Both the position numbers and the translations under genes were made by a program. This document shows positions 3 to 23,677 of a stretch of DNA of 32,000 nucleotides, piece after piece. Below the pieces are notes generated by a model. That model ran no database searches, was not told where the DNA came from, and was given only the letters and a program-made list of their open reading frames with translations. The stretch comes from an uncultured Chloroflexia bacterium. GTDB taxonomy: Bacteria; Chloroflexota; Ktedonobacteria; Ktedonobacterales; JADMIN01. Each line of letters begins with the position of its first letter. The stretch's first letter is position 1. The stretch lies in the NCBI GenBank assembly GCA_963718915.1, contig CAVRAI010000006.1, positions 120,001 to 152,000 of the forward strand, in the 5' to 3' direction.

Positions 3-1322
3 GTCGCCGCTGTCTATACGCAGCAGACGCCGCCCACCACCTTCACGTTCAATACCTATCCGCCTATCGCCAAGTTCGGCAATCCCGACCCACTCGATGT
101 AGATATGAACGCTGGTTCGCTGACCGAAGGCATTCAACTTGACGTGCCCCCTGGCCCGGCGGGCGCGATGCCGAATCTGACGCTGGCCTATAACAGCGCG
201 GCGGTGAACGAACAGCACAGCCCCCAGGGCGCGGCGGGCTGGGTGGGCGAGGGCTGGAGCCTCTCGCTCGGCTCGATCAGCTGGGCTGAGCACAATGTCG
301 TGCCCACCTGCACGACGAGCTGCACCAATAGCTGGCAGAGCCAGTGGATGCTGAACGATCCCTTCGGCACCAGCACAGAGCTGATTCCGCCTAATCTGGC
401 GACCTCGACCTACTATGACGACTCGAACAACTGGTGGTGCACGACCGGCAACGCCTCGTCTACCGCCTGCCCGATTCAATTCCAGACGGCCAATGAGAGC
501 TACGCCAAAGTCTATGCCTATGTTGGACCTACCAAAATTGGCACTCAGACCGATCCATTCCCCTGTTTCCGGGTCTATCTGCGGAACGGCGTCATGGAGG
601 AGTTTGGCTGCACCGCCGACTCGTTGCAGTATTATCCGCTGCTGTCTGGGTCGTTGCCGCACCAGGGCAACAGCAACGTGGTCTATCCCGTCGCCTGGAT
701 GCTCGATCTCATCACCAATCCGCAGGGTGGCCAGGTGCATATTACCTACCAGCGAGATATGGCGACCGCGTCTAACGGCGTCTCCTACCCCCGTGATGTC
801 GTTCCGTCGACCATCGAGTGGGACTCGCCCGACTGCAACAGCGCCAAGCTGCTGTGTCCCAGCTCGTCGTGGCATCCACACTACCGCGTCCAGTTCAGCG
901 CCACGCACTCGACGTACGTTGGGCACCCAGCGAATACGCCCACAGGCTGCAACACCGATTCGACGGTCCGCTGCGATGACCCGATGAACATCACAGGGGC
1001 GAATGGCTCGAACGCGCCGCTGGTGAATGGCGCCTTCGTGCTCAACGACGCCAATGTGCAGATCAACAACACCCCTGCGACCAGCTACAATAGCTCCTCG
1101 TGGAATACGGTGCGTGACTACCAGTTCAGCTATGAGCAGTCTGGCCCGACGACAATTGTCGATCCGGTGACCGGCAAGAACATTTCGAGCGCGGGCTATC
1201 TAGACCTCACGCAGTTCCAGGAGTTCGGCGACAACGGGACGTCGAGCTACTATCCGGCGATGAGCTTCGGCTACTCCAGCCAGACGGAATACTACGAGGA
1301 CGGCAGCTATACGCCGTACTAG
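3..1322 (+). pseudogene. Main rhs/Tc-type toxin gene, fragment 1 (SpvB/TcdB-like N-terminal region); 5' end lies upstream of the window
   Basis: Frame 3 is open from base 3 (VAAVYTQQTPPTTF...VDMNAGSLTEGIQLDVPPGPAGAMPNLTLAYNSAAVNEQHSPQGAAGWVGEGWSLSLGSISW). The L-x-Y-N-S ... G-x-G-W-x-L pattern is typical of SpvB/TcaC-type N-terminal regions that precede YD-repeat shells. The frame stops at TAG 1320-1322, but protein-like coding continues in frame 1 (TSTTFCGPSWNTGGNGGTCDLWSQSRDGNSRYLTTIDNGQGLHQSISW, about 1318-1465) and then in frame 2. Confidence 0.75.
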
Positions 1323-4036
1323 CACGACGTTCTGTGGCCCAAGCTGGAACACCGGCGGGAACGGGGGTACCTGCGACCTGTGGAGCCAGAGCCGGGATGG
1401 CAACAGCCGCTACCTGACCACGATCGATAACGGCCAGGGGCTGCACCAGTCGATCTCCTGGAGGTTATGCGCGCAACAACACCCACGGAGCCGGTACCTC
1501 GCATGGTGCTGATGACGTCAACCCGTTCTATTGCACCACGAACCCGACGGGATACCCATGCAACTCGGCTGACGATCAGGCGTGGAGCCGCATCGTGGTC
1601 ACCAGCCGTTCGGATTCCGTGCAGCAGCTCACCCAGGCGGGGCAGGGCGGGACGCTGACCTCGACCCCAATCACCAGCAACTGGACATACAACTACTACC
1701 TGTCATCCCTGACCGCGAAGGAATGCATCGACTGTGTGGCGGGCATGTACTGGGGCAACCAGAACGACGGCGACTACATGGACTACTACAACGGCAAGTT
1801 CATGGGTTTCGCCGAGGCGGATGTCTCGAACCCGGATGGGTCCGCCGAGAAGCATTTCTATGAGGCGACCGAGGGCTGGGGTGTCTATACCCTGAACACC
1901 ACATTGGTGCCAAGCTGTAACTCGACGCTGCCACCGATCCAGACCGCGTGCCAGCCTTCACCCTGGTGGGATGTGGCCAACGCCGGACATGGGCTGGAGA
2001 CAGAGGCGGACTACTACGACAGCGACACTGGCCATACCCTGCTCAAGAAGATAACCTCGACCTACAACGCCGTCTGCCCGCCAAGTGGGGTCAGCGCGAC
2101 GCCCGTGTACACTGGCAGTGGCAGCAGCTTCGGCCCCTGGGGGAGCAATCAGGTCAGCGAGCTAGACCACAACAACCCGGTGGCGGTCTGCGACGTGCAG
2201 AAGACACAGCAGGTGACGACCACCTATGACAGCAATGGCTTTGGCTCGGGTAATAGCATCAGCGAGACCGACAGCTACACTTATGACATCTATGGCATGG
2301 TCTCGCAGACGAAGCGGGTTAGCAGCAGCGGCGGCTCCAGCCCGACGACGATCTACGACAAGACCACCTTCATCCGCAACGACGGGCTGACCCTGCCACC
2401 CTCACAGCGCAACGGGACCAACCAGAGTCCCTCCACCGCGAACCCGACCTGGTGGAGCGGCGTCTATCTCGTCGAGTTGCCCGCCCTGGAGACGGTTGAG
2501 GATAGCAGCGGCAACGGTAACCGCTATAGCTGCAACTATACCCTCTACGATGGCATGGCGGTGTATACGATCAGCCAGACCAGCAGCCTGACGAAGGGCA
2601 ATGTGACCGAACAGGACACCTATACCAACTGCGGGACCGCGCCGAACTACACGACCAGTGGCAAGGTGGGCGCGACGACCAGTTACGACACGTATAGCAA
2701 CGCCACCGCAACCCAGGACCCCGACGCCGTCAACGGTGACGCCTCGCACAAGATTGCCAGCGGCAGTTGCTCGGGCCAGACGAACTGCACCCAGTACGAC
2801 GCGAACACCGCCGCCAAGACGACGGGCAGCAGCAGCGTAGGCAATCTGAACGACGCCAGCGCCTATGACACGACCGCCGGGGGCGGCTACGGACTCTGGC
2901 CGACCACGACGACCGACGCCAACGGCCAGACGACGACCTATACCTACGATGGGCTGGGACGCATGCAGACGATGGTTGCGCCGGGGCAGACCAGCGGCCC
3001 CGCCACCCAGACGACCGCCTATTACAACAATCTCTGCCCCGCTACCGGCGCTTCATCGCCCTGTGTCGAGGTCGATACGACAAGCCGGACCAGCAGCACG
3101 ACCAGCGTCCTGACCCGCCAGTTCTACGACGGCGAGAACCGGTTGGTGGAGACACGCACCGCCGCGCCTGGCGGGCAGGATGTTGTCCAGTACACGCTCT
3201 ACAATGCCGCCGGGCAGGCCGCGCAGTCGAGCGTCAAGTACTTCGTGACGGCCTATACCGGCCCGGGAGGCGTTACCGCCGCCTACTCGATTCCCGATAG
3301 CACGCAGGATGGCACGATCACGAGCTATGACGGCCTGGGGCGCATGATCCAGGCGCAGGATGCGCTCTCGAACGTCGGCCACATCGCCTACTCGATTGTC
3401 TGTAACGCGCCAGGGACGAGTGACTCCGCCTGCTACGAGCAGACGCTGGCCACCGACCCGAACAATCACCAGCAGGGCAGCCTGAGCGACGCCTTTGGCC
3501 GCGCGCTCTATGCCCAGCGCTACAGCGGCAACAGCCCGGCGACCTATGCCGTCTATAGCACGGCCAAGACCACCTACGACTTCCTGGGCCGGGTGACGCA
3601 GACCTTGCAGCCCGATGGCGTCAGCATGTCGACGGCGACCTATGACGCCGCCGGACACGTGACCAGCGCCACCGACCCGGATCGCGGGCTGACCAGCTTT
3701 ACGTATGACAGCAACGGCAACCTGACCCAGCAGACCGACGCCCGCTGCGGGACGAGCCTGCCGCAGACGGCGTGCGGCGCAGGGACGACCTACACCGGCT
3801 ATGATGGCCTCAACCGGCCGATCTGGCGCAACAACAGCAGCACACCGAGCGGGGCGTACGTCACCTATTCGTACGACGGCTCGCCCTTCGGCAATGGGAT
3901 GGGACATCTGACCGCCGAGGTCTTCCGTGGCAGCGCGGGAACTGGCCCCGCCCAATTCTCCGGCGCCTACACCTACGCCTATGATTCGCTGGGCCGCACC
4001 GTTCAAACCGACCAGACGATGGGCGGGGCGGGCGCG

Positions 4037-4600
4037 TGCCCACCCGGCTGGACCTGCCAGGATATTGGCGGCCCCGGGCAGGCGGGGAGCCAGAGCTACG
4101 CGGGCGACAGCCTCTGGACCGTCTCGGGCGGTGGGACGGATATCGTGGGGACGAGCGACCAGTTCCACTTCGTCTCCCAGAGCCAGGCGGGCGACGCGAC
4201 GCTCTCGGCCCATGTCGCCTCACAGACCACCACCGACCCCTGGGCCAAAGCTGGGGTGATGGTGCGCGCCACCGGCACGGGGGCCAACGCGCCGTTCTAT
4301 GCGGTGCTGGTCTCGCCGGGCAACGGCATCGCGGTGCAGTATCGTGATACGGCGGGCGGCACGGCAGTGCACCCGGCGAACGTCAACGGCGTGGCGGCGC
4401 CCGCTTATGTCGCCGTCGCGCGCGTGGGGACCACCTATAGCGGCTATACCTCCACGGATGGGACGAACTGGACCTTGATCCCTGGCTCCAGCCATACCAG
4501 CAGCGGCCTCAGCGGCAGCGTACAGATGGGGCTGGCGGTGACGGCGCACAACAACGCGACCGTCTCGACGGCGACCTTCGACACCGTCTCGCTCATGACC
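4037..4600 (+). other. ConA-like/LamG-type (DUF1349-like) beta-sandwich domain, copy 1, inserted in the Rhs shell
   Basis: CPPGWTCQDIGGPGQAGSQSYAGDSLWTVSGGGTDIVGTSDQFHFVSQSQAGDATLSAHVASQTTTDPWAKAGVMVRATGTGANAPFYAVLVSPGNGIAVQYRD...GTTYSGYTSTDGTNWT...VQMGLAVTAHNN...FDTVS. The pattern W..QDIG...G.G.DI.GTSDQF.F....GD....A.V..Q...WAKAGVM.R...Y......G...QYR matches what I recall from ConA-like lectin/glucanase-fold accessory domains. The family name is from memory, not from a search. Confidence 0.6.
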
Positions 4601-4615
4601 GGGGGCGCGAATGTC

Positions 4616-5165
4616 TGCCCGACCGGCTGGACCTGTCAGGATATCAACAGCCCAACGCCCGCTGGGAGCCAGAACTACCTCAACAACGGCGTCTGGATCA
4701 TCTCGGGCGCAGGCGCCAACATCTGGGGGACGAGCGACCAGTTCCACTACGTCTCGCAGGCCGTCGCCAGCGATGTCGCCTTCAGCGCCCATGTCGACTT
4801 GCAGACCAACACGAACTCGGTTGCCGAGGCGGGAGTGATGGTGCGCGGCAGTAGCGCCAATAACGCCCCCTACTACTTCGCGTTCGCCACCCCCAGCGGC
4901 GTCGTCTACGTCCAGTACCGTGACGCGGCGGGTAACACCGCCGCCACCCAGACGACCACTGCTGGGAGCGCACCGATCTACCTCAAGGTCGGACGGGTGG
5001 GAACCACCTACACTGCCTACACCTCCAGCGATGGCGTCACCTGGACGGCGATCTCCGGCTCGGCGCGCACCATGAGCAACCTGAGCGGCAGCGTGCAGAT
5101 CGGCCTGGCCGTCACCTCGCACAACAACGGGACACTCTCGCCCGACACCTTCGACCAGATTAGCG
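4616..5165 (+). other. ConA-like/LamG-type beta-sandwich domain, copy 2 (tandem with copy 1)
   Basis: CPTGWTCQDINSPTPAGSQNYLNNGVWIISGAGANIWGTSDQFHYVSQAVASDVAFSAHVDLQTNTNSVAEAGVMVRGSSANNAPYYFAFATPSGVVYVQYRD...GTTYTAYTSSDGVTWTAISGSARTMSNLSGSVQIGLAVTSHNNGTLSPDTFDQIS. It is colinear with copy 1 over its whole length. Confidence 0.6.
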
Positions 5166-5720
5166 AGACGCCGGGTAGTTCCCCAGTCTTCGCGCCGCCC
5201 GCTGCCGTCACCGTCACGCCCATCGCCGCCGCCGATGGCACGACCAGCTACCCCATTCAGACGGCCTACAACGACGCCAGCCAGCCGACGACGCTCACCT
5301 ACTCGGACAACGAGGTGGCCAGCTACGGCTACGACGGCGCCTCTGGCTGGCTTTCGAGCCTGAGCACGACCCCGGCAGGCGGCAGCGCGACCACGCTCCT
5401 GGGCAGCATTGGCTACAGCGGAGTCGGTGGGGCAGCGGGTCACGCCACCAGCGCGAGTGTCGGCGGCGGCACGTACACATTTAGCTCTAGCTATGACGCC
5501 GATGTCCGCCTGAGCAGCCTGAGCGTCTCGAACACCAGCACCAGCGCTGTGCTCTTCCAGAGCCAACGGGGCTATGACGCCGCCAGCAACGTGACCTCGG
5601 TCGCCACGACGCTCTCCGCCGGAACGGACAACCAGGCGTTCTGCTATGACGACCAGAACCGGCTGGTCTGGGCCGGATCGACCGGCACGCCGTCGTGCGG
5701 GAGCTCACTGACCGCCAGGG

Positions 5721-6222
5721 AGCCTGAGCAGCGCCAACTACACGCAAGCCTTTACCTACGACAATCTGGATCGGCTCACCAGTGGGCCGCTGGGCAGCTA
5801 TACCTATGGCGATAGCGCCCATCTGCATGCCGTCACCAGCATTGGCAGCGGTGCCGACCTATACCGCCAAATATGACGCGGTCGGCGACATGACCTGCCG
5901 TGCGCCTGATAACACGACGACCTGCGCGGGTACGCCAACAGGGGCACAACTGGGCTACGACAACGAGGGGCGACTCGCCACCTGGCAGAATGCGCCAAGC
6001 AGTCCGACCACCACTGATAGCTTCCTCTACGATGGGGCGGGCAACGGGTCGAGCAGTCGGTAACCATCAACGGCTCGATGACGACCACGACCACCTATGT
6101 GGCGGGCGGGCTGGAGGAGATCAGCGCCAATGGCGTAAGCACGACCACGACCACGTATTTCACGGGCGCAGATGGCTTGCCCACCGCCGAACGGGTGAGC
6201 ACGGGGAGCACGCCGGCCCATT
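5721..6222 (+). pseudogene. Main rhs gene, three short frame segments between closely spaced frameshifts
   Basis: Frame 3 reads SLSSANYTQAFTYDNLDRLTSGPLGSYTYGDSAHLHAVTSIGSG. Frame 1 reads PTYTAKYDAVGDMTCRAPDNTTTCAGTPTGAQLGYDNEGRLATWQNAPSSPTTTDSFLYDGAGN. Frame 3 then reads VEQSVTINGSMTTTTTYVAGGLEEISANGVSTTTTTYFTGADGLPTAERVSTGST. All three are colinear with the uninterrupted cassettes O4 and O5. The apparent 1-nt indels are near 5852 (ggtGccgac vs ggtccgac), 6045 (aacggg vs aaccggg) and 6212-6216. Confidence 0.7.
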
Positions 6223-7297
6223 GAGCTACCTAGCAACTGACGGGCAAGGGACGGTCAGCACATCGCTCGATAGCGCAGGGAATGTGACGAGCAGTCAGCT
6301 CTACACGCCGTATGGGAACGCGCGCTATAGCAGCGGCAGTTCGCCCACCACGCTGGGATATACGGGCCAACGCGCCGATAGCGCCACGGGGCTGGATTAC
6401 TACCAGGCGCGATATTACGATCCGGTGGCGGGCCAGTTTGCCTCTGCCGATTCGGTCGCTGATGGGCTGAATCGCTATGGGTATGTGGCAGGCAATCCGG
6501 CGACGGCGACCGATCCCAGCGGGCACTACCAGTGTTTCGATGACTCTTGCACGCGCGGAGGAGGCCACGGCGGCAATGGCACGAGTGGCAGTGGTAGCAA
6601 GAGTGACGGCGATGGAGGTGGTACTGGCACGCATGGATCCTGTAAGGAGAGTGCCTATCATCCAGAGTGCAAAGCGTATTATGATTGGCAGCGACAAAAT
6701 GAGCCGCTCCGCTGGGATGCGCTCAATGGCCTCCGTACTAAAGCGGGCATGCTCTTAATAGTTGCGGCAGCCGCGCTATTGCTTGCAGGTCTAGTTACAA
6801 TAACCGCGAGTCGTAATGCGGTCACGATATTCGATACTCTCCTAGACATGGGAGAGGGTATCTATGCGGGCCTTCTGGGCATTCATCTTCTTAGAAATGC
6901 CTCGTGGGATGTTAACTATGCCACAGGTGATGATCTGAATGCTGTATCATTCGCGCTGGCGGCCCTTACTTCCGCGGTCAACAGTGCTTTGGGAATCCTG
7001 GTCCAAATCGCAAAACTAGGCTGGCTTGGAAAAGCTCTTGAGGACGTAGCGCTGCCGGCAGCCATCGAAGCGGCCAAAACGGCTGCAACAGGTGGATTTA
7101 TGGGCATAGTGATTAGGCTAATCATAGATGCCGCCCAAGGTATGGTAGGCGTTGTAGCTACAGCAATAAGTCAAACCGTCTATGCGGCGGCTATGGCCGC
7201 AAAGATAGACTTTGACCAGAACCTGAACATGGACTTAGAAACGTGGTGTGGGCTGCATGATGGCGTCTGCACGAAGGCACCAAAGAACACTTATTGA
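6215..7297 (+). pseudogene. Main rhs gene, last fragment: RHS repeat-associated core plus C-terminal domain CT1 (6527-7297)
   Basis: GPLSYLATDGQGTVSTSLDSAGNVTSSQLYTPYGNARYSSGSSPTTLGYTGQRADSATGLDYYQARYYDPVAGQFASADSVADGLNRYGYVAGNPATATDPSGH is the canonical RHS core; DPSGH lies at 6512-6526. The unrelated CT1 follows: YQCFDDSCTRGG, a Gly/Ser-rich linker, then a long Ala/Gly/Ile/Leu/Val-rich region ending WCGLHDGVCTKAPKNTY. Confidence 0.8.
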
Positions 7298-7540
7298 GGA
7301 GCCTACCGTTCCCGCGTCGCAGTCGAGCTTCCGCCACGATCTATGCCAGCGCATAATCGATGTACAGAGGGCGTTATGAACTTGATGAGCCGGTCTCAGA
7401 CGCCCTAGAATGGCGATGGAGCGCTGGCGAGAGGATGAAGAAGGCATCGGCTCTCAAGGCTCCCAATTTCACCCAGGCTGTGGCGATCACGGGCGGCCCA
7501 AGGCCTTTCCTAACACCTGCGCAAAGGACGGAGAACTCGA

Positions 7541-7924
7541 TTGAGAGATACAAGTGCGATTGCGATTATATCAGGTATTACATTTGCCCTTGCAGGCCTT
7601 GCGTTTATGTTAATCGTTACACCGATGGCGGTGCGCTCGGTCTATACGCAAACGCCCAGGCAGTCACATCGATCATTCGGTCGCATAAGCGCATGGCTGG
7701 TGGCGCTAGGAACAGAGGCAACAGGATTAATACTCCTTGCTATTGGGGTAGTGTCTCTGCTGGGGTTGATAGATCACCGTATCTCCGAACTGGCCTTCGC
7801 TGCAATAGACGCGTTCATAGTGCCATATGGAGCACTATATTTACTGGTGTCAATATTGCTCGTGGCAATAGGCGTGTTGACATTATTCGTGGGCCGCATA
7901 GTTTCTCAACACCGCAACCGGTGA
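7541..7924 (+). CDS. Small multi-pass membrane protein; candidate immunity protein for CT1
   Basis: 127 codons with a TTG start and GGACGGAG 7 nt upstream. About four hydrophobic segments (AIAIISGITFALAGLAFMLIV, ISAWLVALGTEATGLILLAIGVVSLLGLI, AFAAIDAFIVPYGALYLLVSILLVAIGVLTLFV). It is the first plausible same-strand ORF after CT1. The immunity role is inferred from position only. It overlaps the 7360..7980 ORF, which looks like off-frame noise. Confidence 0.55.
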   Translation: MRDTSAIAIISGITFALAGLAFMLIVTPMAVRSVYTQTPRQSHRSFGRISAWLVALGTEATGLILLAIGVVSLLGLIDHRISELAFAAIDAFIVPYGALYLLVSILLVAIGVLTLFVGRIVSQHRNR

Positions 7925-8339
7925 CATCCACGCGCATAAAAACACCGGATGTCTCACATTGCGCCTATGACTATCTGTGACTACTGCGGCGATGTGGTTA
8001 CTGTCAAGGCGAGGTGTGAATGGAGTGAACTTCTGATTACGAACCAGACAGGCAAGTCAACTCAGCCGTAGTCATGAGGGAGAGTGATGTATATTATCTC
8101 CACAATCCGCCTAGAAGAAAGCGAGTTGACAGATGCGAGGTCTATGCTAGTAGGCTTCGTCAGGCACAGAGGATACATCCTGTTGCAGGCGCGGCAGCAG
8201 AGCAACGCCACCTGCGTTCCCTCTGGCGCATTGCAGCTTCCCCTGCTGGCAAGCACTGCACTGCTGGCGCTGTTGGTATTGCTGCTGGTTTCGTGCGCTA
8301 CTCGCGGTACTCTCACTACGCAAGGAAAGAAGGCCAGGG

Positions 8340-8936
8340 ATGGGACAGGCACACTATGAGACGCAACCTGGGGAGCAACACCTGCTAGCCAACGGCGCAC
8401 TCTCCCAGATCAGCAAAGCGTCACAAGCGTCACAAGTGTCACCCGACTTGTTCCACCTAGCTCTCAGGCTCATTGCCGAATTGGGCGCCTGCATACAGAT
8501 GATCGCCAGTGACCTCCTTCACGCGCACGAAGAAGCGCACGAGGCCCAAGACCTGGACCTAGCCGCGCACCGCTGGGCGCAGCACCTGCGGGCGGTAATC
8601 GCGTTGGTCGAAGAACTCGGGAACGGTAGCGCGAGGGAGAGGGAGAGAAGCGTCGGAATACCAACACTGCGCCCGCTAGTCGCTCCGTACGCTACTGCCA
8701 CGACGCAGACAGAACCAGGATCTTCCCGCCTGGCACGTCCGATGCGTCGCGCCCGTCCAACATCAGCATTGGCATCTCCAGTCCGGTTGACACCCCGCGA
8801 ACGCGAGGTGCTACGCCTGGCTGAACGCGGCTATCCGCCGCGCATAATTGCCAAGCGGCTCTATCTCTCGGTGGAGACCGTCTATACCCACCGGCGCAAC
8901 ATCCGCCGCAAACAACAGCAGCATGCCCAGCCGTGA
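8340..8936 (+). CDS. LuxR/GerE-family helix-turn-helix transcriptional regulator
   Basis: The C-terminal LTPREREVLRLAERGYPPRIIAKRLYLSVETVYTHRRNIRRK matches the LuxR/GerE-type HTH pattern (T.RE.EVL.L...G....IA..L..S..TV..H..NI..K). I do not recognise the N-terminal 140 aa. Confidence 0.7.
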   Translation: MGQAHYETQPGEQHLLANGALSQISKASQASQVSPDLFHLALRLIAELGACIQMIASDLLHAHEEAHEAQDLDLAAHRWAQHLRAVIALVEELGNGSARERERSVGIPTLRPLVAPYATATTQTEPGSSRLARPMRRARPTSALASPVRLTPREREVLRLAERGYPPRIIAKRLYLSVETVYTHRRNIRRKQQQHAQP

Positions 8937-8943
8937 AGTGGGG

Positions 8944-11382
8944 CGGGCGCGGATATCGTCGGGACGAGCGACCAGTTCCACTTCGTCTCAGAGAGCCAAT
9001 CGGGCGATGGCTCGCTCTCGGCGCGGGTGAATACCCAGACCAACACCGACCCCTGGGCGAAGGCGGGGATCATGGCGCGCGCCAGTAACGCGGCGAACGC
9101 GCCGTTCTACGCGGTGTTCGTCACGCCGGGCAACGGCATCGCGGTGCAGGTTCGCGATAGCACGGGGGCGACGGCGGTGAAGTCGGCGACGGCCAGTGGC
9201 GTCGTACCACTCTATCTCCAGCTCACACGGAGCGGGACGACCTACAGCGCCTCCACCTCCAGCGACGGGGTGCATTGGACCGCGATCCCCGGCTCGGCGC
9301 GGACGATGAGCAATCTGAGCGGGACGGTGCAGCTGGGGTTGGCCGTCACCGCGCATAACACCGGCGCGCTCTCCGCGGCTCTCTTCGACCAGCTCAGCGC
9401 AGCTACCCCAGCCCCCGGCAGCATCACTGTCACCCCGATGGCCGCTGCCGATGGCACGAGCAGCTATCCGATCCAGACCGCCTACAACGACGCCAGCCAG
9501 CCGACCAGCCTCACCTACTCGGACAACGAGGTGGCGACCTACGGCTATGACGGCGCCTCCGGCTGGCTTGCGAGTCTCAGCACCACCCCCGCAGGTGGTA
9601 GCGCCACCACGCTACTCGGCAGCATCGGCTACAGCGGCGCTGGGAGGAGCGGCAGGGCATGCCACCAGCGCGAATGTGGATGGTGGTACGTATACCTTCG
9701 GAGCTAGCTACGACGCCGATACCCGCCTCAGCAGCCTGAGCGTCTCAAATACCAGCACAAGCGCCGTCTTGTTCCAGAGCCAACGCGGCTATGACGCCGC
9801 CAGTAACGTCACGGCGGTGGCCACCACACTCTCAGCAGGCACCGACAACCAGGCGTTCTGTTACGACGACCAGAACCGCTTAGTTTGGGCGGGGTCCACT
9901 GGCACGCCTTCCTGTGGCGCGTCGCTCACCGCAGGCAGCCTGTCCAGTGCCAATTACACCCAGTCGTTCAGCTACGACACGCTGGACCGCCTCACCAATG
10001 GCCCGCTAGGCAGCTACACCTACGGCGATAGCGCGCATCTCCATGGCGTGACCAGCATTGGCAGCGGGCCAACCTACACCGCCATGTACGACGCGGTGGG
10101 CGATATGACCTGCCGAGCCCCCGACAACACGACAACGTGTGCAAGCGCCCCGACGGGCGCACAGTTGGGCTACGACAACGAGGGACGGCTGGCGACGTGG
10201 CAGAACGCGCCGAGTAGCCCGACGACGACTGACAGCTTCCTCTACGATGGGGCGGGCAACCGGGTCGAGCAGCAGGTGACCATCAATGGCTCGATCACGA
10301 CTACGACGATTTATGTAGCCGATGGGCATGAAGAAATCACCAGTGGTGGAGCAGGGACCACTCTCACCAAGTATTTCGCAGTAGGAGATGGCTTACCAAC
10401 GGCCGAACGCGTCGGTACCAACGGCCCAGTAAGCCTCCTCACCAGCGACGGGCTGGGTAGCCTCTCTGAAGCCCTTGATAGCAGCGGCAATGTCACCTTC
10501 CAGCAACTTTATGCGCCGTATGGTGTCGGGCGCTATAGCAGTGGCAGCTCACCGACGGCACTGGGTTATACTGGGCAACGCGAAGACGGAACAACCGGAT
10601 TAGATTACTACCATGCCCGGTATTATGATCCAGTGGGAGGGCAATTCGGGAGCGCAGATACCGCCGATGATGGGCTGAACCGGTATGGCTACGTGCACGG
10701 GAACCCAACGACAGCGACCGATCCAACGGGGCATCGATGTTTTACAGGCGATGGTAGCGTTTGTGGCGGACCTGGGAGTTCACCCTTGCCTCCAATTCCG
10801 ACGACGTGTCATAGTGATGCATCATGTGGGTGCTATACACTGTGTAGCAGTAAGACTATCTGTAACCTTGGCCTACCCACCCAAGGTTGTAACAACGGTC
10901 CGACGCTTGGTGCTGGTGGGGTAAGAAGCGGAGGACACGAGCAGACCAACGCGATATCTTTTAGCGATAAGAGGTATCTTTTCCGAGGACCCGAGCAACA
11001 TGGAGATGACGGACAATGGCACGTCAATGTGCAGATTTTTTCCGCGGAAGGCCAGGAACTGCACAACTACCATATCTTTTATGGGGGTGATCATGCAGGT
11101 AACAACTGCAGCGAGGTCGCTTGGGTACAAGGATTCGATACAGGTGCCTATGCTAGCGAAGATATTGAAGGAGAGAACCGATTCTTCTACGGTCCGCAAG
11201 GGCCGGAGCCTTATCCTGCAACGTGCGCCTTCGGAGCAGAAATAGCCGCGTGGGATGCCACAGGTAAGATCGCGCAGGAAAACGACATTCCCGGAATTAT
11301 GCCGGATTTGGCGAGGTTTCTCATAACATCTTTCGCAGAATTATGTGCCTTGGGGGATGAATATAAGGGGAACAAAGGGTGA
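8944..11382 (+). pseudogene. Orphan rhs cassette O2: one ConA-like domain, YD repeats, RHS core and CT2 (10735-11382); no start, one frameshift near 9643-9647
   Basis: Homology to the main gene begins abruptly at about 8944 (GADIVGTSDQFHFVSESQSGDGSLSARVNTQTNTDPWAKAG..., compare 4140). The frame changes after GSIGYSGAG (9027..9707 ORF to 9451..11382 ORF). The core ends YGYVHGNPTTATDPTGH (DPTGH at 10720-10734). CT2 is RCFTGDGSVCGGPGSSPLPP...HNYHIFYGGDHAGNNCSEVAW...EYKGNKG. Confidence 0.8.
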
Positions 11383-11566: not shown

Positions 11567-12238
11567 ATGCGTCAGATAGCCTTTAATGCCGAGCCACAGT
11601 ATGGTCGAGTGGCACAAGAATATGGGCGTTTTCGCCTGCGACGGGTGTTCATGCCTCTGGAAGGTGGTGGCGCGGAGCCTACAACAACCTATGCGATCAC
11701 CCTTGTGCGCGACACAGGCACAGAGACAGAAGCAGAGGTCGCCTGGATCCAGCGCTTCTTGGCGACGTTACCTGGCATCATCCGTTGCATCGAACAATGG
11801 CTTGAGAGTGAGCCAGCGCGCCTTCGGCACAGAGAGGAGGAATCGGCGGCGCGTGAGAAGCGCATCGCCTCCGGCGAACCGCCCATCGAGTGGACCGACG
11901 AACGCTTGCAAGCCCATGCGGCGTTGATGGAACAACAGCACCAACAATGGCAGCGTGAACACGAGGAACGGCTCGAACAGATCTATCAGGAGCGCTATGG
12001 CGATTGGCGGCCACCAGTACCGACGCGGGAACAGGTGGAGCAGTACTTCCAGCAGATGGCTCCAGGAGAGGAGCCCTGCCCGGATGTCACTGTTGTGCGA
12101 ACATTGGCGATGAGTCTGGAGGAGCGGCATCAGCGTTACCACGCGGTTGAGGTCGCGTTGCGCGAGCTGAAGGCGGCTAATCCTGATGTTGTCCCGCATC
12201 TTGACAGCCCGCTCGGCGGTACAAATTCGACGCCCTGA
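11567..12238 (+). CDS. Hypothetical soluble, acidic, Glu/Gln/Arg-rich protein; candidate immunity protein for CT2
   Basis: 223 codons, ATG start with AAGGAG about 10 nt upstream. No hydrophobic segments. The central region looks helical (HREEESAAREKRIASGEPPIEWTDERLQAHAALMEQQHQQWQREHEERLEQIYQERYG). It is the first same-strand ORF after CT2. I recognise no family. Confidence 0.5.
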   Translation: MRQIAFNAEPQYGRVAQEYGRFRLRRVFMPLEGGGAEPTTTYAITLVRDTGTETEAEVAWIQRFLATLPGIIRCIEQWLESEPARLRHREEESAAREKRIASGEPPIEWTDERLQAHAALMEQQHQQWQREHEERLEQIYQERYGDWRPPVPTREQVEQYFQQMAPGEEPCPDVTVVRTLAMSLEERHQRYHAVEVALRELKAANPDVVPHLDSPLGGTNSTP

Positions 12239-12336: not shown

Positions 12337-13632
12337 CCAGCCTGAGCACGACACCGGCGGGGGGTAGCGCCACCACCCTACTGGGCAGCATCGGCTACAG
12401 CGCGGCAGGCGGAGTCGTCGGCCACGCCACCAGCGCCAGCGTCGGCGGTGGGACGTATACCTTCGGCGCCAGCTACGACGCCGATGTCCGGCTGTCGAGT
12501 TTGAGTGTCGCGAACACCAGCACCAGCGCCGTGCTCTTCCAGAGCCAGCGGGGGTATGACGCGGCCAGCAACGTCACGGCGGTCGCCACGACGCTCTCGG
12601 CCGGGACCGACAACCAGGCGTTCTGTTACGATGAGCAGAACCGGCTCGTCTGGGCAGGATCCACGGGCACGCCAAGCTGTGGCGCGTCGCTCACGGCAGG
12701 CAGCCTCAGCAGCGCCAACTACACGCAAACCTTCACCTACGACAAGCTGGACCGGCTCACCAGCGGGCCGCTGGGCAGCTACACCTATGGCGACAGCGCC
12801 CATCTGCACGCAGTGACCAGCATCGGCAGCGGGCCAACCTACACCGCGAAGTATGATGCGGTCGGCGACATGACCTGCCGCGCGCCGGACAACACGACGA
12901 CCTGCGCAAGCACTCCAACCGGTGCGCAGTTGGGCTACGACAACGAGGGGCGGCTCGCCACCTGGCAGAATGCGCCAAGCAGCCCGACCACGACCGATAG
13001 CTTCCTCTACGATGGAGCAGGCAGCGCGTCGAGCAGTCGGTGACCATCAATGGCTCGATGACGACCACCACGACGTATGTGGCAGGCGGATTGGAAGAGA
13101 TCACTGCCAATGGGGCAGGGACAACGCTCATCAAATATTTCTACCGGCGCTAATGGCCTGCCCACCGCTGAGCGGGTCGGTCCGACAGGTATAACCGGCC
13201 CGCTGTAGCTATCTTGCCACGGATGGGCAAGGCACGGTCTCGGAATCGCTCGATAGCGCCGGGAACGTGACAAGTAGCCAACTCTATACACCGTATGGCA
13301 ACGCACGCTATAGCAGTGGCAGCTCACCTACGAGCATGGGCTATACTGGGCAGCAGGCGGATAGTAGCACAGGGCTAAACTATTACCCGCTCGGTATTAC
13401 GATCCAGTGGCGGGGCAGTTTGTCTCTGCCGATACGGTGGCCGATGGCCTCAACCGCTACGGTTACGTGGGCGGCAATCCCACAACGGCGATAGACCCAA
13501 GTGGGCATCGGATGGAGGCTCTTTTCGATGACTACGAGTGTCACGACTGCGACTTTACCCTTAACAACGTTACTGTCTTCTACCATGGATGCGCCAACCC
13601 AGATCTGGGGTGCTCATATGCTGACGCAACTA
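12337..13632 (+). pseudogene. Orphan rhs cassette O3, 5' part: YD repeats, RHS core and the first 41 codons of CT3; several frameshifts, then cut by an IS insertion
   Basis: Homology starts at SLSTTPAGGSATTLLGSIGYSAAGG (about 12337). Apparent 1-nt indels lie near 13022-13026, 13140, 13206 (ctgTagctat vs ctgagctat) and 13387-13390. DPSGH is at 13494-13508. CT3 then starts RMEALFDDYECHDCDFTLNNVTVFYHGCANPDLGCSYADAT and is interrupted at TA 13631-13632. Confidence 0.8.
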
Positions 13633-14834
13633 GTACTCAGTCCAGTTTGATTTGAGGGTTAGGATAGAGCGCATGCAGCTTGGTACGAGCATCATCGGGG
13701 GTGAATTGCCAGCGGATGCGGGCGTGAGTTGCGTTGCGCTCGGCCTCCAGGGCGGTGACGCGCTGAACCAGCGTGTCGTTATCGGGGACTGGACGCGCGA
13801 GGCAGCCGCGCTCGATGACGCTGATCTCGATCTCGGCCATATTGAGCCAACTGCCATGTTTTGGCGTATAGTGCACCTCCAAGCGGCTGGCGATAGCGCG
13901 CGCCTGCGCAGGCGGGAACGCCGCATAGAGCGCGGCCAGGGTATGGGTGTTGAGGTTATCCTGCACGAGAGCGATCCGCTCGGCCAGAGGGAAGGCTTCC
14001 TCGACCAGCCACCGCAAGCAGCGGGCATAGTGCAGCGCGGTACGCCGCGCGGTGGACGCGTACGTGACGCCAGCCCGCATGCGGAGCGACCAGCACAAAG
14101 AGGTTGGCCGTTCCCTGCCGAATATATTCGTAGTGCCGGCGCTGCACGGACGGGAGCGGGCGGCAGTCCATCCGCGGCTGCCCGTGCAAGACGACGGGCT
14201 TCTCATCGAGGCAGACGAGGGGGCGCAGGGGATCGGGCGGAGCGGCATAGACGTGGGCGTAAAGCGCGAGCACATCCTCCATCGCCGCGACAAAGGCGGC
14301 GCTCACGGTGGGAATACACCAGGCTTTGTGCTGCCAGGGCTTCAGCGCGTTTTTTGAGCAAGGCGCGGATGGTTTAGGGCGAGATGCGTTCCACAAAGCC
14401 GAGTTAGATCGCTTTGCCCGCCAAGAGGCGCAGCGTCCAGTGGTCGTGGCCAGCGGGCGCATCGCTGCACGCGACGGCAATGAGGTGGGCTTGCTGCTCG
14501 CCGGTCAAGGCGGCCCGGAGCCGCGTCTGCCGCCGGTCGGCGAGCACCGCCGCGACACCCTCTGCGGCAAAGCGTTGGCGCACGCGCCAGACCGTATTCT
14601 GGCTGACATCGAGCGCCTGGCTAATCGCGGCGGCGCTCCAGCCGTCGGCCAATTTCAAGAGCACATGGGCGCGCCGCTGGATCCGCGCAGCGGTATGTCC
14701 GCGCTGGATGACGGTCTGGGCCTGGGCGCGTTCAGCGGCGGACAACGTCAGGGGGTGGGTAGAGGTGGGCATACGAGGCTCCTTTCTGGTGCTGCATTCT
14801 ACCACCTTCTCCCAAATCAATGTGGACTAAGTAC
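13633..14834 (-). mobile_element. IS630-family (Tc1/mariner superfamily) insertion sequence, copy A
   Basis: Terminal inverted repeats: GTACTCAGTCCAGTTTGATTTG (13633-13654) against the reverse complement of 14813-14834, GTACTTAGTCCACATTGATTTG (19 of 22 match). It is flanked by TA at 13631-13632 and 14835-14836. It encodes an HTH plus DDE transposase on the minus strand. Confidence 0.85.
13637..14772 (-). pseudogene. IS630-family transposase, copy A (inactivated)
   Basis: The N-terminal HTH region (MPTSTHPLTLSAAERAQAQTVIQRGHTAARIQRRAHVLLKLADGWSAAAISQALDVSQNTVWRVRQRF) has AAAGGAG upstream of ATG 14772. DDE-type motifs are present: CLDEKPV, LVQDNLNTH, HGSWLNMAEIEISV. Two in-frame TAA stops (plus-strand tta at 14404-14406 and 14383-14385, where copy B has ttc) and a 1-nt insertion (ggtGgacgcg, about 14052) break the frame. 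Confidence 0.8.
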
Positions 14835-14836
14835 TA

Positions 14837-16040
14837 GTACTCAGTCCAGTTTGATTTGAGGGTTAGGATAGAGCGCATGCAGCTTGGTACGAGCATCATC
14901 GGGGGTGAATTGCCAGCGGATGCGGGCGTGAGTTGCGTTGCGCTCGGCCTCCAGGGCGGTGACGCGCTGAACCAGCGTGTCGTTATCGGGGACTGGACGC
15001 GCGAGGCAGCCGCGCTCGATGACGCTGATCTCGATCTCGGCCATATTGAGCCAACTGCCATGTTTTGGCGTATAGTGCACCTCCAAGCGGCTGGCGATAG
15101 CGCGCGCCTGCGCAGGCGGGAACGCCGCATAGAGCGCGGCCAGGGTATGGGTGTTGAGGTTATCCTGCACGAGCGCGATGCGCTGGGCCAGAGGGAAGGC
15201 TTCCTTGACCAGCCACCGCAAGCAGCGGGCATAGTCCAGCGCGGTACGCCGCGCGGTGACGCGTACGTGACGCCAGCCCGCATGCGGAGCGACCAGCACA
15301 AAGAGGTTGGCCGGTCCCTGCCGAATATATTCGTAGTCCGGCGCTCCACGCGGCCGGGAGCGGGCGGCAGTCCCATCCGCGGCTGCCCGTGCAAGACGAC
15401 GGGCTTCTCATCGAGGCAGACGAGGGGGCGCAGGGGATCGGGCGGAGCGGCATAGACGTGGGCGTAAAGCGCGAGCACATCCTCCATCGCCGCGACAAAG
15501 GCGGCGCTCACGGTGGGAATACACCAGGCTTTGTGCTGCCAGGGCTTCAGCGCGTTTTTTTGAGCAAGGCGCGGATGGTTTCGGGCGAGATGCGTTCCAC
15601 AAAGCCGAGTTCGATCGCTTTGCCCGCCAAGAGGCGCAGCGTCCAGTGGTCGTGGCCAGCGGGCGCATCGCTGCACGCGACGGCAATGAGGTGGGCTTGC
15701 TGCTCGCCGGTCAAGGCGGCCCGGAGCCGCGTCTGCCGCCGGTCGGCGAGCACCGCCGCGACACCCTCTGCGGCAAAGCGTTGGCGCACGCGCCAGACCG
15801 TATTCTGGCTGACATCGAGCGCCTGGCTAATCGCGGCGGCGCTCCAGCCGTCGGCCAATTTCAAGAGCACATGGGCGCGCCGCTGGATCCGCGCAGCGGT
15901 ATGTCCGCGCTGGATGACGGTCTGGGCCTGGGCGCGTTCAGCGGCGGACAACGTCAGGGGGTGGGTAGAGGTGGGCATACGAGGCTCCTTTCTGGTGCTG
16001 CATTCTACCACCTTCTCCCAAATCAATGTGGACTAAGTAC
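14837..16040 (-). mobile_element. IS630-family insertion sequence, copy B, directly abutting copy A through a single shared TA
   Basis: Same inverted repeats as copy A (14837-14858 and 16019-16040), flanked by TA 14835-14836 and TA 16041-16042. It is nearly identical to copy A apart from scattered substitutions and small indels. Confidence 0.85.
14841..15978 (-). pseudogene. IS630-family transposase, copy B (two-frame organisation at an A7 run, plus further indels in the catalytic region)
   Basis: The HTH ORF ends ...PETIRALLKKTR* and the DDE frame continues KNALKPWQHKAWCIPTVSAAF... from the A7 run (plus-strand T7 at 15555-15561), which is reachable by a -1 shift. The frame is lost again after ...VVLHGQPRM and is regained at LVAPHAGWRHVRVTARRTALDYARCLRWLVKEAFPLAQRIALVQDNLNTH...WLNMAEIE. 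Confidence 0.75.
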
Positions 16041-16042
16041 TA

Positions 16043-16716
16043 GAGCGTACGTCGCTCCGGGCCAATTGGAGCAAAAAGGCACAGATAACAATCCTACCGT
16101 CTACAAGTATGGGACCAAACAAAACGGGGCTCTGCTCTCAGGGTATAGCGGGAAGGTTTTGGATCATCTGATCCAAACGAGGGAGATCCTAAGAAAAGCT
16201 TACCAAAAGTTTCTCGATTGGGATGAAAATGAAGGCGAAGCAGCTATCGACGTCGCTTCAGTGGTTGGTGCATTTGTCTCGGCTGTTGCAGCGTGCTATA
16301 AGACTGACTTTAATGAGTGTCCCCTCTTCGATGGGGACGAACTCGAGCAACTACATGAATGGTGGGTTGGAAACCTCACAGTACTGGAGCAATTGGCTGT
16401 GGTTGATGCCGAGATGAATGTCGCAGATTTTAACGCTTCGATTACGGCCTTGAAGGGAGCGGCATCTAAAGGTCAGACCGTATGGTACAGACAAATGATG
16501 TGGCTTGGACACATTAACTCTAAATATAGCCAGGAAATTGGAGGGCCATCGTTTAGCACGGGTTGGGGCGATCAGCCTCCACCGGATGCATTGTATGCGA
16601 TTGGCAACAGCATGATGGCGCAATGTGCTGGATATCCGTCGAGTGACTTTGGGACTAGTCCAGGAGTAACTAAACAACAGGATTCCAATTACCCTGGCAC
16701 TGGGCCTTGCAATTAA
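16043..16716 (+). pseudogene. 3' part of CT3 (toxin domain of cassette O3), displaced by the IS pair
   Basis: Joining 13632 to 16043 (removing IS-TA-IS-TA) restores one frame: ...GCSYADAT-RAYVAPGQLEQKGTDNNPTVYKYGTKQNGALLSGYSGKVLDHLIQTREILRKAYQKFLDWDENEGE...PGTGPCN*. Without the IS pair, CT3 would be 265 codons. Confidence 0.7.
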
Positions 16717-16798: not shown

Positions 16799-17524
16799 GT
16801 GAAGGTGTGCATGTCAAATAACCTTGTACCAGAGCAGGTGAATTCCCTGCAGCCGCCTGAACACTCGTTGCGAGCCCTCGTGGCAGCACTCATCGCTATT
16901 GGTGTTCATCCCAGTCGCGCCGTCTTCTCCCAATGGATGGATATCGTTCGACCTGAGAGGATACGCCTCTACGCACTACTGCTCTATGGATTGGTAGTAT
17001 TCAACGGACTATTGTCATCGGTGGTGCCAGCAGTTTTCGGCCTTTCAAGTCTACCAGCGACAAATGGAAACGGGGCATCAATGCTGCCCGGCAAATTGAT
17101 CGTTGCCGTTTTCGTGTCGCCATTCGCGGTTCTACTTGGCATTGCCGTGATCATCTCTATCGTTGCAGCGCTCATGCCTGCGACCCAGGGAACACTCAAC
17201 CATCGTGCATATCTCCTCCTACGTCCATTTCTGCTCGCACGGCTTACGGCGGCCACCGTAATTATTCTCCTCGACGTCCTTACGCTTCCGCTGCAGCTGC
17301 CCATCGTTACGCAGCATCTCTCACTGAATGCATGGCAGCCGTTGGTGGCGCTTGCCGCTGCTATCTATGAACTCATTCTCTTAACTAACGCTCTTGCCGC
17401 CGTGAGTACACGAAGCAGGTGGTTACTCTTCGCAATCATTGTATTCGGCGAGTTAACAGGATATTTGCTTGGCTCCGTATTCCCAGTCGCGGTACTTCGA
17501 GCATTTGGTATTCACACATCCTAA
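16799..17524 (+). CDS. Polytopic membrane protein (about 6 hydrophobic segments); candidate immunity protein for CT3
   Basis: 241 codons from GTG 16799; an in-frame ATG at 16811 preceded by GAAGG is an alternative start. Hydrophobic segments include IRLYALLLYGLVVFNGLLSSVVPAVFGL, LIVAVFVSPFAVLLGIAVIISIVAALM, WQPLVALAAAIYELILLTNALAAV and WLLFAIIVFGELTGYLLGSVFPVAVL. It is the first same-strand ORF after CT3. Confidence 0.6.
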   Translation: MKVCMSNNLVPEQVNSLQPPEHSLRALVAALIAIGVHPSRAVFSQWMDIVRPERIRLYALLLYGLVVFNGLLSSVVPAVFGLSSLPATNGNGASMLPGKLIVAVFVSPFAVLLGIAVIISIVAALMPATQGTLNHRAYLLLRPFLLARLTAATVIILLDVLTLPLQLPIVTQHLSLNAWQPLVALAAAIYELILLTNALAAVSTRSRWLLFAIIVFGELTGYLLGSVFPVAVLRAFGIHTS

Positions 17525-19607: not shown

Positions 19608-19886
19608 ATGAGTCGGCAACCTGCAAAACGGAAAATAGCGCTGGTTCTTCTCGGCGCTGTCTTAGGAGGAATAGTGGGGCTGGCACTCGTTGAGGTAGTC
19701 TTGTCACCTGCGTTCGCGAGTTACTTTCGCAGTTGGGGAGCGGAGCAGTTACAGCAGTTTCTGCGTCAACCGGTAGTGTCTCCATTTGGGGGAGCTCTGA
19801 TTGTTGGCCTAGGTTTCTACCTGGGTGGGAGGTTGGCGCTCTGGTTGTTGTGGGATAGGCGGAATCCAAGAAATGAGGTAGCCTAA
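19608..19886 (+). CDS. Small two-pass membrane protein; candidate immunity protein for CT4
   Basis: 92 codons, ATG start with AGGAG 9 nt upstream, beginning 31 nt after the CT4 stop. Hydrophobic segments: IALVLLGAVLGGIVGLALVEVVL and FGGALIVGLGFYLGGRLALWLLW. Confidence 0.6.
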   Translation: MSRQPAKRKIALVLLGAVLGGIVGLALVEVVLSPAFASYFRSWGAEQLQQFLRQPVVSPFGGALIVGLGFYLGGRLALWLLWDRRNPRNEVA

Positions 19887-22306: not shown

Positions 22307-22714
22307 ATGGCGGGAAAATGCCTCTCGTGTGGGGGCAAGCAGGTAGGTGTGCATGTGATTGAGCGTGTGATAATCCTGGCGTTTATTGTGCTTTTCACAA
22401 GCGTTGCCGGATTCTTCATCTATTTGCTCGTCGTCTGGATCGTCGGTCGTCGCAGACTCCATGAACCGCTCACCCGGCAGCAGCTCGGTATCGATTTACT
22501 GCTTCTGGCAGGTGGATTGGGTTTCTTGGCGTTCGCTCTGCTATTCGTCATGTTCGGTCAGGAGAGCCATGACATCGCTTTGCCCAGCGATGTAGCGCAA
22601 GGGCTGAAGGTTGCAATGATAGCGTTAGGCGCTTCATCAGTTGCCATTGTCTTCTGTGGAGTGGCAATCCTCTTGGCCGACCGCTTTCTTCATCTCCCGG
22701 ATAGGTCGGTCTAA
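22307..22714 (+). CDS. Small multi-pass membrane protein; candidate immunity protein for CT5
   Basis: The ORF track gives 22265..22714 from a TTG. The in-frame ATG at 22307 (MAGKCLSCGGKQ...) is preceded by GGGGAAAG. Hydrophobic segments: VIILAFIVLFTSVAGFFIYLLVVWIV, IDLLLLAGGLGFLAFALLFVMF and VAMIALGASSVAIVFCGVAILLA. Start choice is uncertain. Confidence 0.55.
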   Translation: MAGKCLSCGGKQVGVHVIERVIILAFIVLFTSVAGFFIYLLVVWIVGRRRLHEPLTRQQLGIDLLLLAGGLGFLAFALLFVMFGQESHDIALPSDVAQGLKVAMIALGASSVAIVFCGVAILLADRFLHLPDRSV

Positions 22715-23362: not shown

Positions 23363-23677
23363 ATTGGCACGAACAACCTGACCCCTAACCCTCGCCGCCG
23401 ACCTGCGCGCCACCTTGCGTGACGCCCGCTACCTCGTCGCCATCGGTCGTCTCGAACGCGTCCGCTGGTACCGCTCCCTCTGGGCACTCGAACTCACCGG
23501 CATCGGTGGTCCCTCATACGGTTTCCGCTAATATTGTTACCCATAGCGTTACCCATGCTCGTCGGAGTTGTGTATGGGATCTGTGTGTTGAACAGATTGT
23601 GCATACGACTGCTTTTCCGAGTTGTTTTGCGAGTGCGCGCAAGATGTCTCGCAAATGACCAATACCGGTGCATTTCG

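Follow-up and report, generated by a model that had tools for sequence, protein, structure and literature searches.

Putative hydrophobic payload tips paired with small membrane proteins in an Rhs array of a Ktedonobacteria-like bacterium

The Rhs tip Tse5-CT inserts spontaneously into lipid layers, forms ion-conducting pores and depolarises cells, and Tsi5, a protein with two transmembrane (TM) segments, protects against it (PMC9637101, PMC10684867). Here we analyse a stretch of 32,000 nucleotides from an uncultured Chloroflexia bacterium (assembly GCA_963718915.1, contig CAVRAI010000006.1, positions 120,001 to 152,000; hereafter the window), in which two C-terminal Rhs tips, CT1 and CT5, are followed by genes for small membrane proteins, I1 and I5 respectively. 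On sequence comparison, CT1 and CT5 appear to be divergent members of an undescribed hydrophobic payload domain at the C-termini of Rhs/YD shells in Ktedonobacteria-like soil bacteria. Their closest functional analogue is Tse5 (RhsP1, PA2684) with Tsi5, from the H1 type VI secretion system (H1-T6SS) of Pseudomonas aeruginosa, since both combine an Rhs shell, a hydrophobic and apparently non-enzymatic C-terminal tip and an adjacent gene for a small integral membrane protein, known or putative, of immunity. The original prediction for this stretch overlooked that such a pairing of a pore-forming Rhs tip with membrane immunity had already been established experimentally (PMC9637101, PMC10684867). 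Unlike Tse5, which is PAAR/VgrG-linked and delivered by the T6SS of a diderm, CT1 and CT5 have a Ktedonobacteria-like host, and no T6SS genes occur in the 32 kb window, at or beyond whose edge the N-terminus of the main Rhs gene lies (its open reading frame, ORF, starts at 105). Ktedonobacteria are Gram-positive-type filamentous soil bacteria and, to our knowledge, are without a T6SS. The terminal Cys loops of CT1 and CT5 have no described counterpart in Tse5, and the partners in the family have two to four TM segments and belong to several unrelated families. A profile of the family found no relationship in PDB sequences, Pfam or NCBIfam, a null that is not a direct comparison with Tse5-CT; Tse5 was also absent from the PDB match lists of searches with the Rhs core.

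Ionophore tips in systems of contact-dependent growth inhibition (CDI) are predicted to be helical bundles that span the membrane and dissipate its potential, with polymorphic, toxin-specific CdiI proteins and strong toxin divergence (PMC11630599). CT1 and CT5 resemble these ionophores (CdiA-CT EC93 type, groups 1-6) in their predicted helical bundle of membrane length and their polymorphic partners, a resemblance of kind only. The CDI ionophores are carried on a CdiA filament behind a VENN-type boundary and combine a five-helix bundle with a separate entry domain at the N-terminus, by which inner-membrane proteins are hijacked, whereas CT1 and CT5 are carried on Rhs behind DPSGH, have six to seven predicted helices prefixed by a Cys loop and a Gly/Ser linker, and give no sequence match. 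The original prediction drew its analogy with pore-forming colicins (PF01024), which are likewise helical and membrane-inserting and are countered within the bilayer by small immunity proteins of three to four TM segments. However, none of 13 family members matched the PF01024 model at E<=1, no colicin chain or channel domain was among the Foldseek matches in the PDB, and tblastn against 72,556 plasmids returned nothing. The colicin channel is a water-soluble ten-helix globule with one buried hydrophobic hairpin, whereas the domain described here is hydrophobic throughout.

Among monoderms, TspA/TsaI and EsxX of the Staphylococcus aureus type VII secretion system (T7SS) combine membrane depolarisation with polytopic membrane immunity and variable arrays (PMC9484751, PMC12744356). 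As candidate polymorphic depolarising toxins of a monoderm, CT1 and CT5 would be comparable, but the staphylococcal toxins are delivered by the LXG/T7SS route, share no sequence match with them, and in EsxX depend on a glycine zipper that the hydrophobic part of CT1 and CT5 is without. In the WapA-type Rhs/YD proteins of Bacillus and Streptococcus, which are without a T6SS, the C-terminal toxins vary, immunity genes lie next to them and orphan cassettes occur (PMC12704120). Their characterised tips are soluble nucleases or tRNases with soluble immunity proteins, in contrast to the hydrophobic CT1 and CT5 with their membrane partners. In Bacillus subtilis WapA the Rhs/YD organisation is the same as here. 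We infer that CT1 and CT5 with their partners are systems of the kind represented by Tse5/Tsi5 and the CDI ionophores while belonging detectably to neither family. What is new is thus the sequence family only, as a membrane-active Rhs tip with membrane immunity is already known as a kind.

DPSGH immediately precedes both CT1 and CT5 (Table 1), and solved Rhs/TcC chains in the PDB align to the CT5 ORF only as far as this boundary (about query residue 330-342). Right behind it both tips open with YQCFDDSC(T/A)RGG, followed by a Gly/Ser-rich linker, a second Cys segment (SCKESAYHPEC..YYDWQ in CT1, PCAKPPSEYYAAC..YAQWE in CT5) and LRWDAL or KRFDAL, respectively. After this motif comes a hydrophobic stretch of about 150-170 residues, and the ends (TWCGLHDGVCTKAP in CT1, VWCSESQNKGVCTTPP in CT5) both finish in WC-x5-8-C. 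All of these shared elements, from which the original prediction had proposed a family, are present where it placed them. Ala, Gly, Ile, Leu and Val make up 0.50 of the whole tip in CT1 and 0.47 in CT5, and the cores of about 150 residues have a grand average of hydropathy (GRAVY) of 0.93 and 0.92, with three segments above the Kyte-Doolittle threshold in each (19-residue window, threshold 1.6). Cysteines are paired locally at residues 3/8, 39/48 and 241/248 of CT1, and at 3/8, 32/38, 49/60 and 238/247 of CT5. The first of these loops (C-x4-8-C-..GG after DPxGH) also occurs in family relatives and in the unrelated tip CT2 of the same array (RCFTGDGSVCGG), and is thus a shared linker and not specific to the family.

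BLASTP aligns CT1 and CT5 over their full length at 28% identity (E=6e-12), and in shuffle tests z was 11 for the whole domain and 9 when only the C-terminal tail was compared. Taken by themselves, the hydrophobic cores were not above composition (z=0.66), which places the pairwise signal in the motif at the N-terminus and the tail at the C-terminus. Leave-one-out profiles were made on core columns only and compared with 200 shuffles, the close relatives of CT1 being left out when CT1 was scored. Every member scored 21-85 bits against shuffle maxima no higher than 15.6 bits; CT1, whose clade is the most divergent, reached 25.4 bits (shuffle maximum 7.8), and CT5, which is typical of the family, 64.7 bits (shuffle maximum 4.0). 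Core homology between CT1 and CT5 therefore appears detectable at profile level only. Together with the relatives described below, all at Rhs C-termini, these scores bear out the original grouping, and we regard it as almost certain that CT1 and CT5 are one family.

About 20 relatives were found, every one in a soil metagenome and at the end of an Rhs/YD protein. Word-index searches gave five close relatives of CT1 and one of CT5, neither query retrieving the other tip, and a third search with a 13-sequence profile added nothing. An exhaustive profile search returned 49,745 matches, most of them ordinary Rhs cores because the profile held the Rhs core of P0002; only those reaching profile position ~430 were kept, and a dozen proteins matched through to the tip end. 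A metagenome scan with a 4-sequence alignment gave 3 loci, and further members are a second, partial copy in locus L014 and the tips of L025-L027. After trimming at DPxG, the relatives are collinear with CT1 and CT5 and share, in order, C..(Y/W)..W, R.x(A/K)L, a hydrophobic helix, LDL, GG(L/F)P and the ending Q..M(D/P)I..WC...G.C. An SAGGH motif between GG(L/F)P and the ending is restricted to the CT5-like clade. Member contigs span a GC content of 0.40-0.65, so the family is not limited to one genus. In the window the family hidden Markov model (HMM) matches CT1 and CT5 only, and a scan of GTDB genomes with the family profile gave no relative. A GTDB scan with the Rhs core reached metagenome-assembled genomes (MAGs) of Ktedonobacteria, none of whose tips is in the family; among genomes that represent species, the closest cores (89% and 57% identity) come from MAGs of Ktedonobacterales/Ktedonobacteria, so that a Ktedonobacteria-like member of Chloroflexota is the most probable host.

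The family was originally described as unrecognised, and this holds in all databases searched. Scans of the tips with Pfam, NCBIfam, PADLOC and PHROGs gave nothing above noise, no PDB chain matched the family profile at E<=10, and the plasmid set likewise gave no match. Foldseek searches of two AlphaFold2 (AF2) models against the PDB, and of one against viral structures (BFVD), gave nothing below E=0.1; the weak matches were to BAR domains, designed bundles, NuoK-like subunits and holins, all generic helical proteins. A first AF2 model built from 6 sequences was too poor for use (predicted local distance difference test score, pLDDT, 56). The model built from 13 sequences (pLDDT 71.8, predicted template modelling score 0.62) is entirely helical, with helices at residues 2-49, 53-78, 90-117, 121-142, 146-156, 161-188 and 192-198, and ends in a small hairpin bearing the two C-terminal cysteines. 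The six to seven helices include long ones of 22-48 residues and are linked by loops of 3-5 residues. The segment 26-49 has an Eisenberg <H> of 0.53-0.71 in four of the five members examined (0.29 in P0011) and contains 1-4 charged residues. In the next helix the charges are almost all acidic, and those that follow are moderately hydrophobic. With a core GRAVY of 0.51-1.06 across 13 members, the tip domain is predicted to be an all-alpha, strongly hydrophobic fold of about 200 residues in which several helices have the length and hydrophobicity to span a bilayer. Neither the helical bundle nor the Foldseek searches pointed to a soluble enzyme fold, the outcome that the original prediction had named as counting against membrane attack.

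Downstream of 12 of 13 tips, at the 12 loci with readable downstream DNA, there is a gene for a protein of 67-179 residues with two to four TM segments (Table 1). The small polytopic partners noticed beside CT1 and CT5 are thus general for the family and no coincidence of this locus. They fall into at least four or five families that are mutually unrelated, and I1 and I5 differ as originally stated (E=3.6). Each has three strong hydrophobic segments (GRAVY 1.06 and 1.11). Pfam, NCBIfam, PADLOC and PHROGs scans assigned the partners to no named family, with the sole exception of a sub-threshold similarity to DUF6585 in the type found in L025, L026 and L027. A homologue of I1 (58% identical, 127 residues) lies at equal spacing after the CT1-like tip in L002-L004, with its start visible in L001, and L008 has a homologue of I5 (76% identical, 119 residues) behind its CT5-like tip. 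With these homologues kept beside matching toxin subtypes, I1 and I5 are real genes. The start of I5 may be GTG at 22355 (119 residues), as in L008, instead of ATG at 22307. An ORF overlapping I1 (7360-7980) was rejected as spurious, as its ATG lies within an 11-nt stretch missing from L002. Ratios of nonsynonymous to synonymous substitution (dN/dS) of 0.28 for CT1 against its L002 relative, 0.39 for I1 and 0.62 for I5 show that selection acts on all three as coding sequences, in a more relaxed form on the partners than on CT1.

The window holds a high-GC Rhs locus with one long Rhs gene followed by four orphan modules, each an Rhs core fragment with a tip. The main Rhs ORF has an RHS_repeat match, and a PF25023 YD-shell annotation was precomputed for P0001 and relatives. 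Five different tips stand behind near-identical core fragments in the window, and similar arrays occur in L011, L014 and L025. In its core-end position, variable tips and orphan arrays, the setting of CT1 and CT5 is that of an Rhs/YD polymorphic toxin cassette. Variability of tip and partner is a hallmark of polymorphic toxins. For ionophore toxins such polymorphic variability has been shown (PMC11630599).

Between CT1 and I1, the spacer is about as conserved across three loci as coding DNA. It contains an imperfect inverted repeat overlapped by a sigma-70-like site (Table 1), and a 9-nt insertion in L001 falls in the hairpin loop. With its hairpin and promoter-like site, the conserved spacer points to separate control of the immunity gene. 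The spacer is probably the promoter or regulatory region of this gene and may act as a promoter, an operator or an RNA element; Rfam has no match in the window. The LuxR/GerE-type regulator gene downstream of I1 may travel with the CT1-I1 cassette.

That the tips are toxic and are neutralised by their neighbours is a prediction from genetic linkage, a membrane ORF following 12 of the 13 tips, and we are fairly confident that tip and partner form a toxin/immunity module of some membrane-related kind. The full mechanism that we prefer, a membrane-inserting and depolarising Rhs payload neutralised in the bilayer by its partner, is put forward as reasonably probable and by analogy with described systems. 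The tip would be kept inside the Rhs shell and set free after autoproteolysis. It would then enter the cytoplasmic membrane of the target and dissipate the membrane potential as a pore or ionophore, while I1 and I5 would shield the producer by binding the toxin within the bilayer. Binding of this kind would account for the finding that unrelated partners accompany the different toxin subtypes. The local Cys pairs could, speculatively, form disulfide-stabilised loops, which would place the action on the extracytoplasmic side. Membrane attack, as the original prediction proposed, fits the composition, predicted structure, gene pairing and precedent, and stays an inference from these.

Several observations weigh against this mechanism. 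The function of the family members is predicted from sequence and models, and confidence in the AF2 model is only moderate, with residues 122-160 below pLDDT 50. The cores hold 14-22 charged residues, and CT1 has one unambiguous TM-like helix (Kyte-Doolittle 2.61), the others being borderline at 1.6-2.0; because of these charges and borderline helices, a largely amphipathic protein that binds membranes peripherally is possible. No glycine zipper was found in the hydrophobic part of either tip, G-x3-G-x3-G being absent from CT1 and present in CT5 only within the Gly/Ser linker (residues 17-33). The spacers between tip and partner, 243 nt for CT1-I1 and 418 nt for CT5-I5, are long for a toxin-immunity pair. 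Finally, CT1 is on an Rhs gene with at least four frameshifts and CT5 on an orphan fragment, and perhaps neither is made at present.

This last point could mean that both tips are decaying relics in this genome, a silent reservoir for recombination in which only the immunity genes are in use, an explanation that we consider possible but somewhat doubtful. Relative to the CT5 orphan, whose frame is intact, the 3' part of the main Rhs gene shows indels at ~5712 (+1), ~5853 (+1), ~6045 (-1) and 6197-6211 (+8), none of them in long homopolymers, and CT5 is on a promoterless fragment. Frames are also broken in other cassettes (9027-9707/9451-11382 and 12501-13043), IS630-like copies lie within the array, and the promoter-like spacer ahead of I1 suggests that immunity is expressed independently. 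Yet the frames of CT1 and CT5 are unbroken over 256-257 codons, and the dN/dS of CT1 points to purifying selection. The frame breaks reflect either decay of the array or imperfect assembly of near-identical repeats; long flanking genes are uninterrupted, for example the 1601-residue ORF at 23835-28640, and the indels may be assembly errors in a repeat-rich region. With either cause, the full Rhs-CT1 protein might be absent in this genome. The relic explanation concerns present activity and not the nature of the domain, and is hence compatible with a depolarising payload.

A more far-reaching version of membrane attack is that the tips are a structurally new membrane-permeabilising class, with disulfide loops stapling both ends, adapted to reach the exposed cytoplasmic membrane of neighbouring monoderms from the outside and able to dispense with a T6SS and an import step. 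We regard this as unlikely. If true, the four membrane-partnered tips among the five in the window would reflect a bias of Ktedonobacterial Rhs proteins to membrane-active payloads, with delivery ending at the membrane.

The tips could also be membrane-embedded without forming a pore, and either act as intramembrane enzymes or poison a specific protein of the membrane (a transporter or Sec/YidC, say) or a pathway that is lipid-linked, such as the lipid II cycle, the partner then blocking the interaction of toxin and target. A near-invariant Asp within a hydrophobic helix (the LDL motif), the conserved His of SAGGH in the CT5-like clade and the many acidic residues of the cores would suit such a role, and CDI ionophores, which require specific membrane-protein receptors (PMC11630599), are a precedent for protein recognition in the bilayer. 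However, the His is missing from the CT1 clade, and the invariant or near-invariant columns of the 13-sequence alignment are only three Cys, one Asp, one Gly and one Trp, and nothing among them looks like a catalytic set. As there is also no fold or profile match to enzyme or inhibitor families, we consider poisoning of this kind quite improbable.

Two further explanations are very hard to sustain. That CT1 and CT5 are non-homologous and alike only in common linker and junction motifs and similar hydrophobic composition would agree with the chance-level pairwise core score, the word-index searches in which neither tip found the other and the first Cys loop of CT2, but is opposed by the core-only profiles far above their shuffle maxima, the equal domain length and helix pattern, and the intermediate members that bridge the clades with collinear R.xAL, LDL, GG(L/F)P and Q..MDI..WC..G.C. 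That the hydrophobic C-terminus is an anchor or assembly domain of Rhs in the membrane of the producer, with unrelated membrane genes downstream, would suit a hydrophobic, helical domain whose toxin role is deduced, but not its position past the core boundary, where payloads are encapsulated, its occurrence in orphan-cassette arrays typical of toxin/immunity modules, or the co-variation of partner genes with toxin subtype that is a polymorphic toxin hallmark.

Membrane-active polymorphic toxins are few and structurally poorly understood, with Tse5-CT, the CDI ionophores, TspA and Ssp-type effectors as the main examples. The depolarising payload proposed here would add a sequence-unrelated example in Chloroflexota/Ktedonobacteria, where interbacterial weapons are essentially unstudied. 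With about 20 natural variants and at least four or five partner families, it would lend itself to comparative study of the carriage of hydrophobic payloads within Rhs shells, of their entry into a bilayer and of the way in which a small membrane protein stops them. The family profile can also annotate tips now labelled 'hypothetical' or 'RHS repeat-associated'. Concepts in the field are unchanged, as new Rhs tip families turn up regularly.

Table 1. Coordinates of features in the window and, without coordinates, the downstream genes of family members at related metagenomic loci.
Feature	Position	Strand	Remarks
Main Rhs gene	105-7297, in pieces	+	RHS repeats and two DUF1349-like inserts
3' part of main Rhs gene, upstream of CT1	5700-6250	+	Broken by frameshifting indels
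DPSGH	6512-6526	+	Rhs core end, boundary ahead of CT1 payload
CT1, whole tip	6527-7297	+	
CT1 pre-toxin linker	6527-6637	+	Cys loop YQCFDDSC 6527-6550, then Gly/Ser-rich low-complexity stretch
CT1 hydrophobic all-alpha toxin domain (predicted)	6638-7297	+	Stop codon 7295-7297
CT1 landmarks			Second Cys loop 6638-6670; LRWDAL 6707-6724; strongest TM-like helix 6746-6802; QNLNMDLETWCGLHDGVC 7217-7270
CT1-I1 spacer	7298-7540	+	74-83% identical to spacers of L002 (698-960) and L001 (1509-1800)
Imperfect inverted repeat/hairpin in spacer	7368-7406		14 pairs, mostly retained in all three loci
Sigma-70-like site TTGATG-18-TAGAAT	7382-7411		Overlaps hairpin
I1, candidate immunity protein for CT1	7541-7924	+	127 aa, 3-4 TM, TTG start after GGAG
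LuxR/GerE-type helix-turn-helix gene	8340-8936	+	After I1; start of a homologue also after the I1 homologue in L002
CT2 tip	10735-11382		Orphan module, unrelated to CT1/CT5 family
CT3 tail	16042-16716		Separated from own core by two IS630-like copies
CT4 tip	18839-19576		Orphan module
Orphan Rhs core fragment bearing CT5	20122-21114	+	Frame intact, ends DPSGH
CT5	21115-21888	+	85%-identical relative P0006 in L008
CT5 landmarks			Cys loop 21115-21138; Gly/Ser linker; second Cys segment 21256-21294; KRFDAL 21325-21342
CT5 landmarks, C-terminal half			Hydrophobic helices; LSAGGH 21736-21753; RQMSEDIGVWCSESQNKGVC 21796-21855
I5, candidate immunity protein for CT5	22307-22714	+	135 aa, 3 TM
Rhs core stub	23018-23422		
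L009			Downstream ORF 116 aa, 2-3 TM
L010			No membrane partner; transposase-like gene abuts tip
L011			Downstream ORF 175 aa, 4 TM
L012			Downstream ORF 68 aa, 2 TM
L014			Downstream ORFs 67 aa, 2 TM (uncalled) and 118 aa, 3 TM
L025, L026, L027			Downstream ORF ~175 aa, 2 TM and soluble C-terminal domain

The other tips of the array differ from CT1 and CT5. CT4 was rejected as a family member, with an hhalign probability of 1% and only a WC..G.C-like motif in common, and the family HMM misses both CT3 and CT4. The motif in question, WC-x5-C, is in the N-terminal part of CT4 (19013-19054, residues 59-73, EYEWCTNDGTCVTA) and resembles the end of CT1 and CT5; either a small disulfide loop that recurs or a remnant of recombination could account for it. 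CT3 and CT4 have one hydrophobic helix each and show weak mutual similarity (GYSGK(V/E)L..., E=0.002). CT3 is followed by a gene for a protein of 241 residues with about five TM segments (16799-17524) and CT4 by one of 92 residues with two (19608-19886), so that four of the five tips in the locus have membrane partners; only the partner of CT2 (11567-12238) is soluble and acidic. The related metagenomic arrays L025 (46-1278 and 4030-4956) and L011 (6582-8273) contain further tips that are hydrophobic and Cys-terminated and go unmatched by the family HMM. Some of these precede membrane ORFs, and there may be a broader set of membrane-type Rhs tips in these bacteria.

Two tandem inserts of about 150 residues, DUF1349/ConA-like (CP.GWTCQDI...), lie in the Rhs shell (ORF 1595-5815, about residues 870-1180), and copies recur at 9027-9400. 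They are an unusual decoration for Rhs and may be a binding module. Within the CT3 module there are two tandem, near-identical IS630-like copies (13637-16026, minus strand) encoding HTH_32/HTH_23 and DDE_3 domains; they are themselves frameshifted and split the core fragment at 12501-13043 from the tail of the CT3 tip. Downstream of the array, the 1601-residue ORF mentioned above is a fusion of a Polysacc_synt flippase-like domain, Wzy_C (O-antigen ligase/polymerase-like) and a GT4 glycosyltransferase, and two more glycosyltransferase genes are found on the minus strand at 28740-31024.

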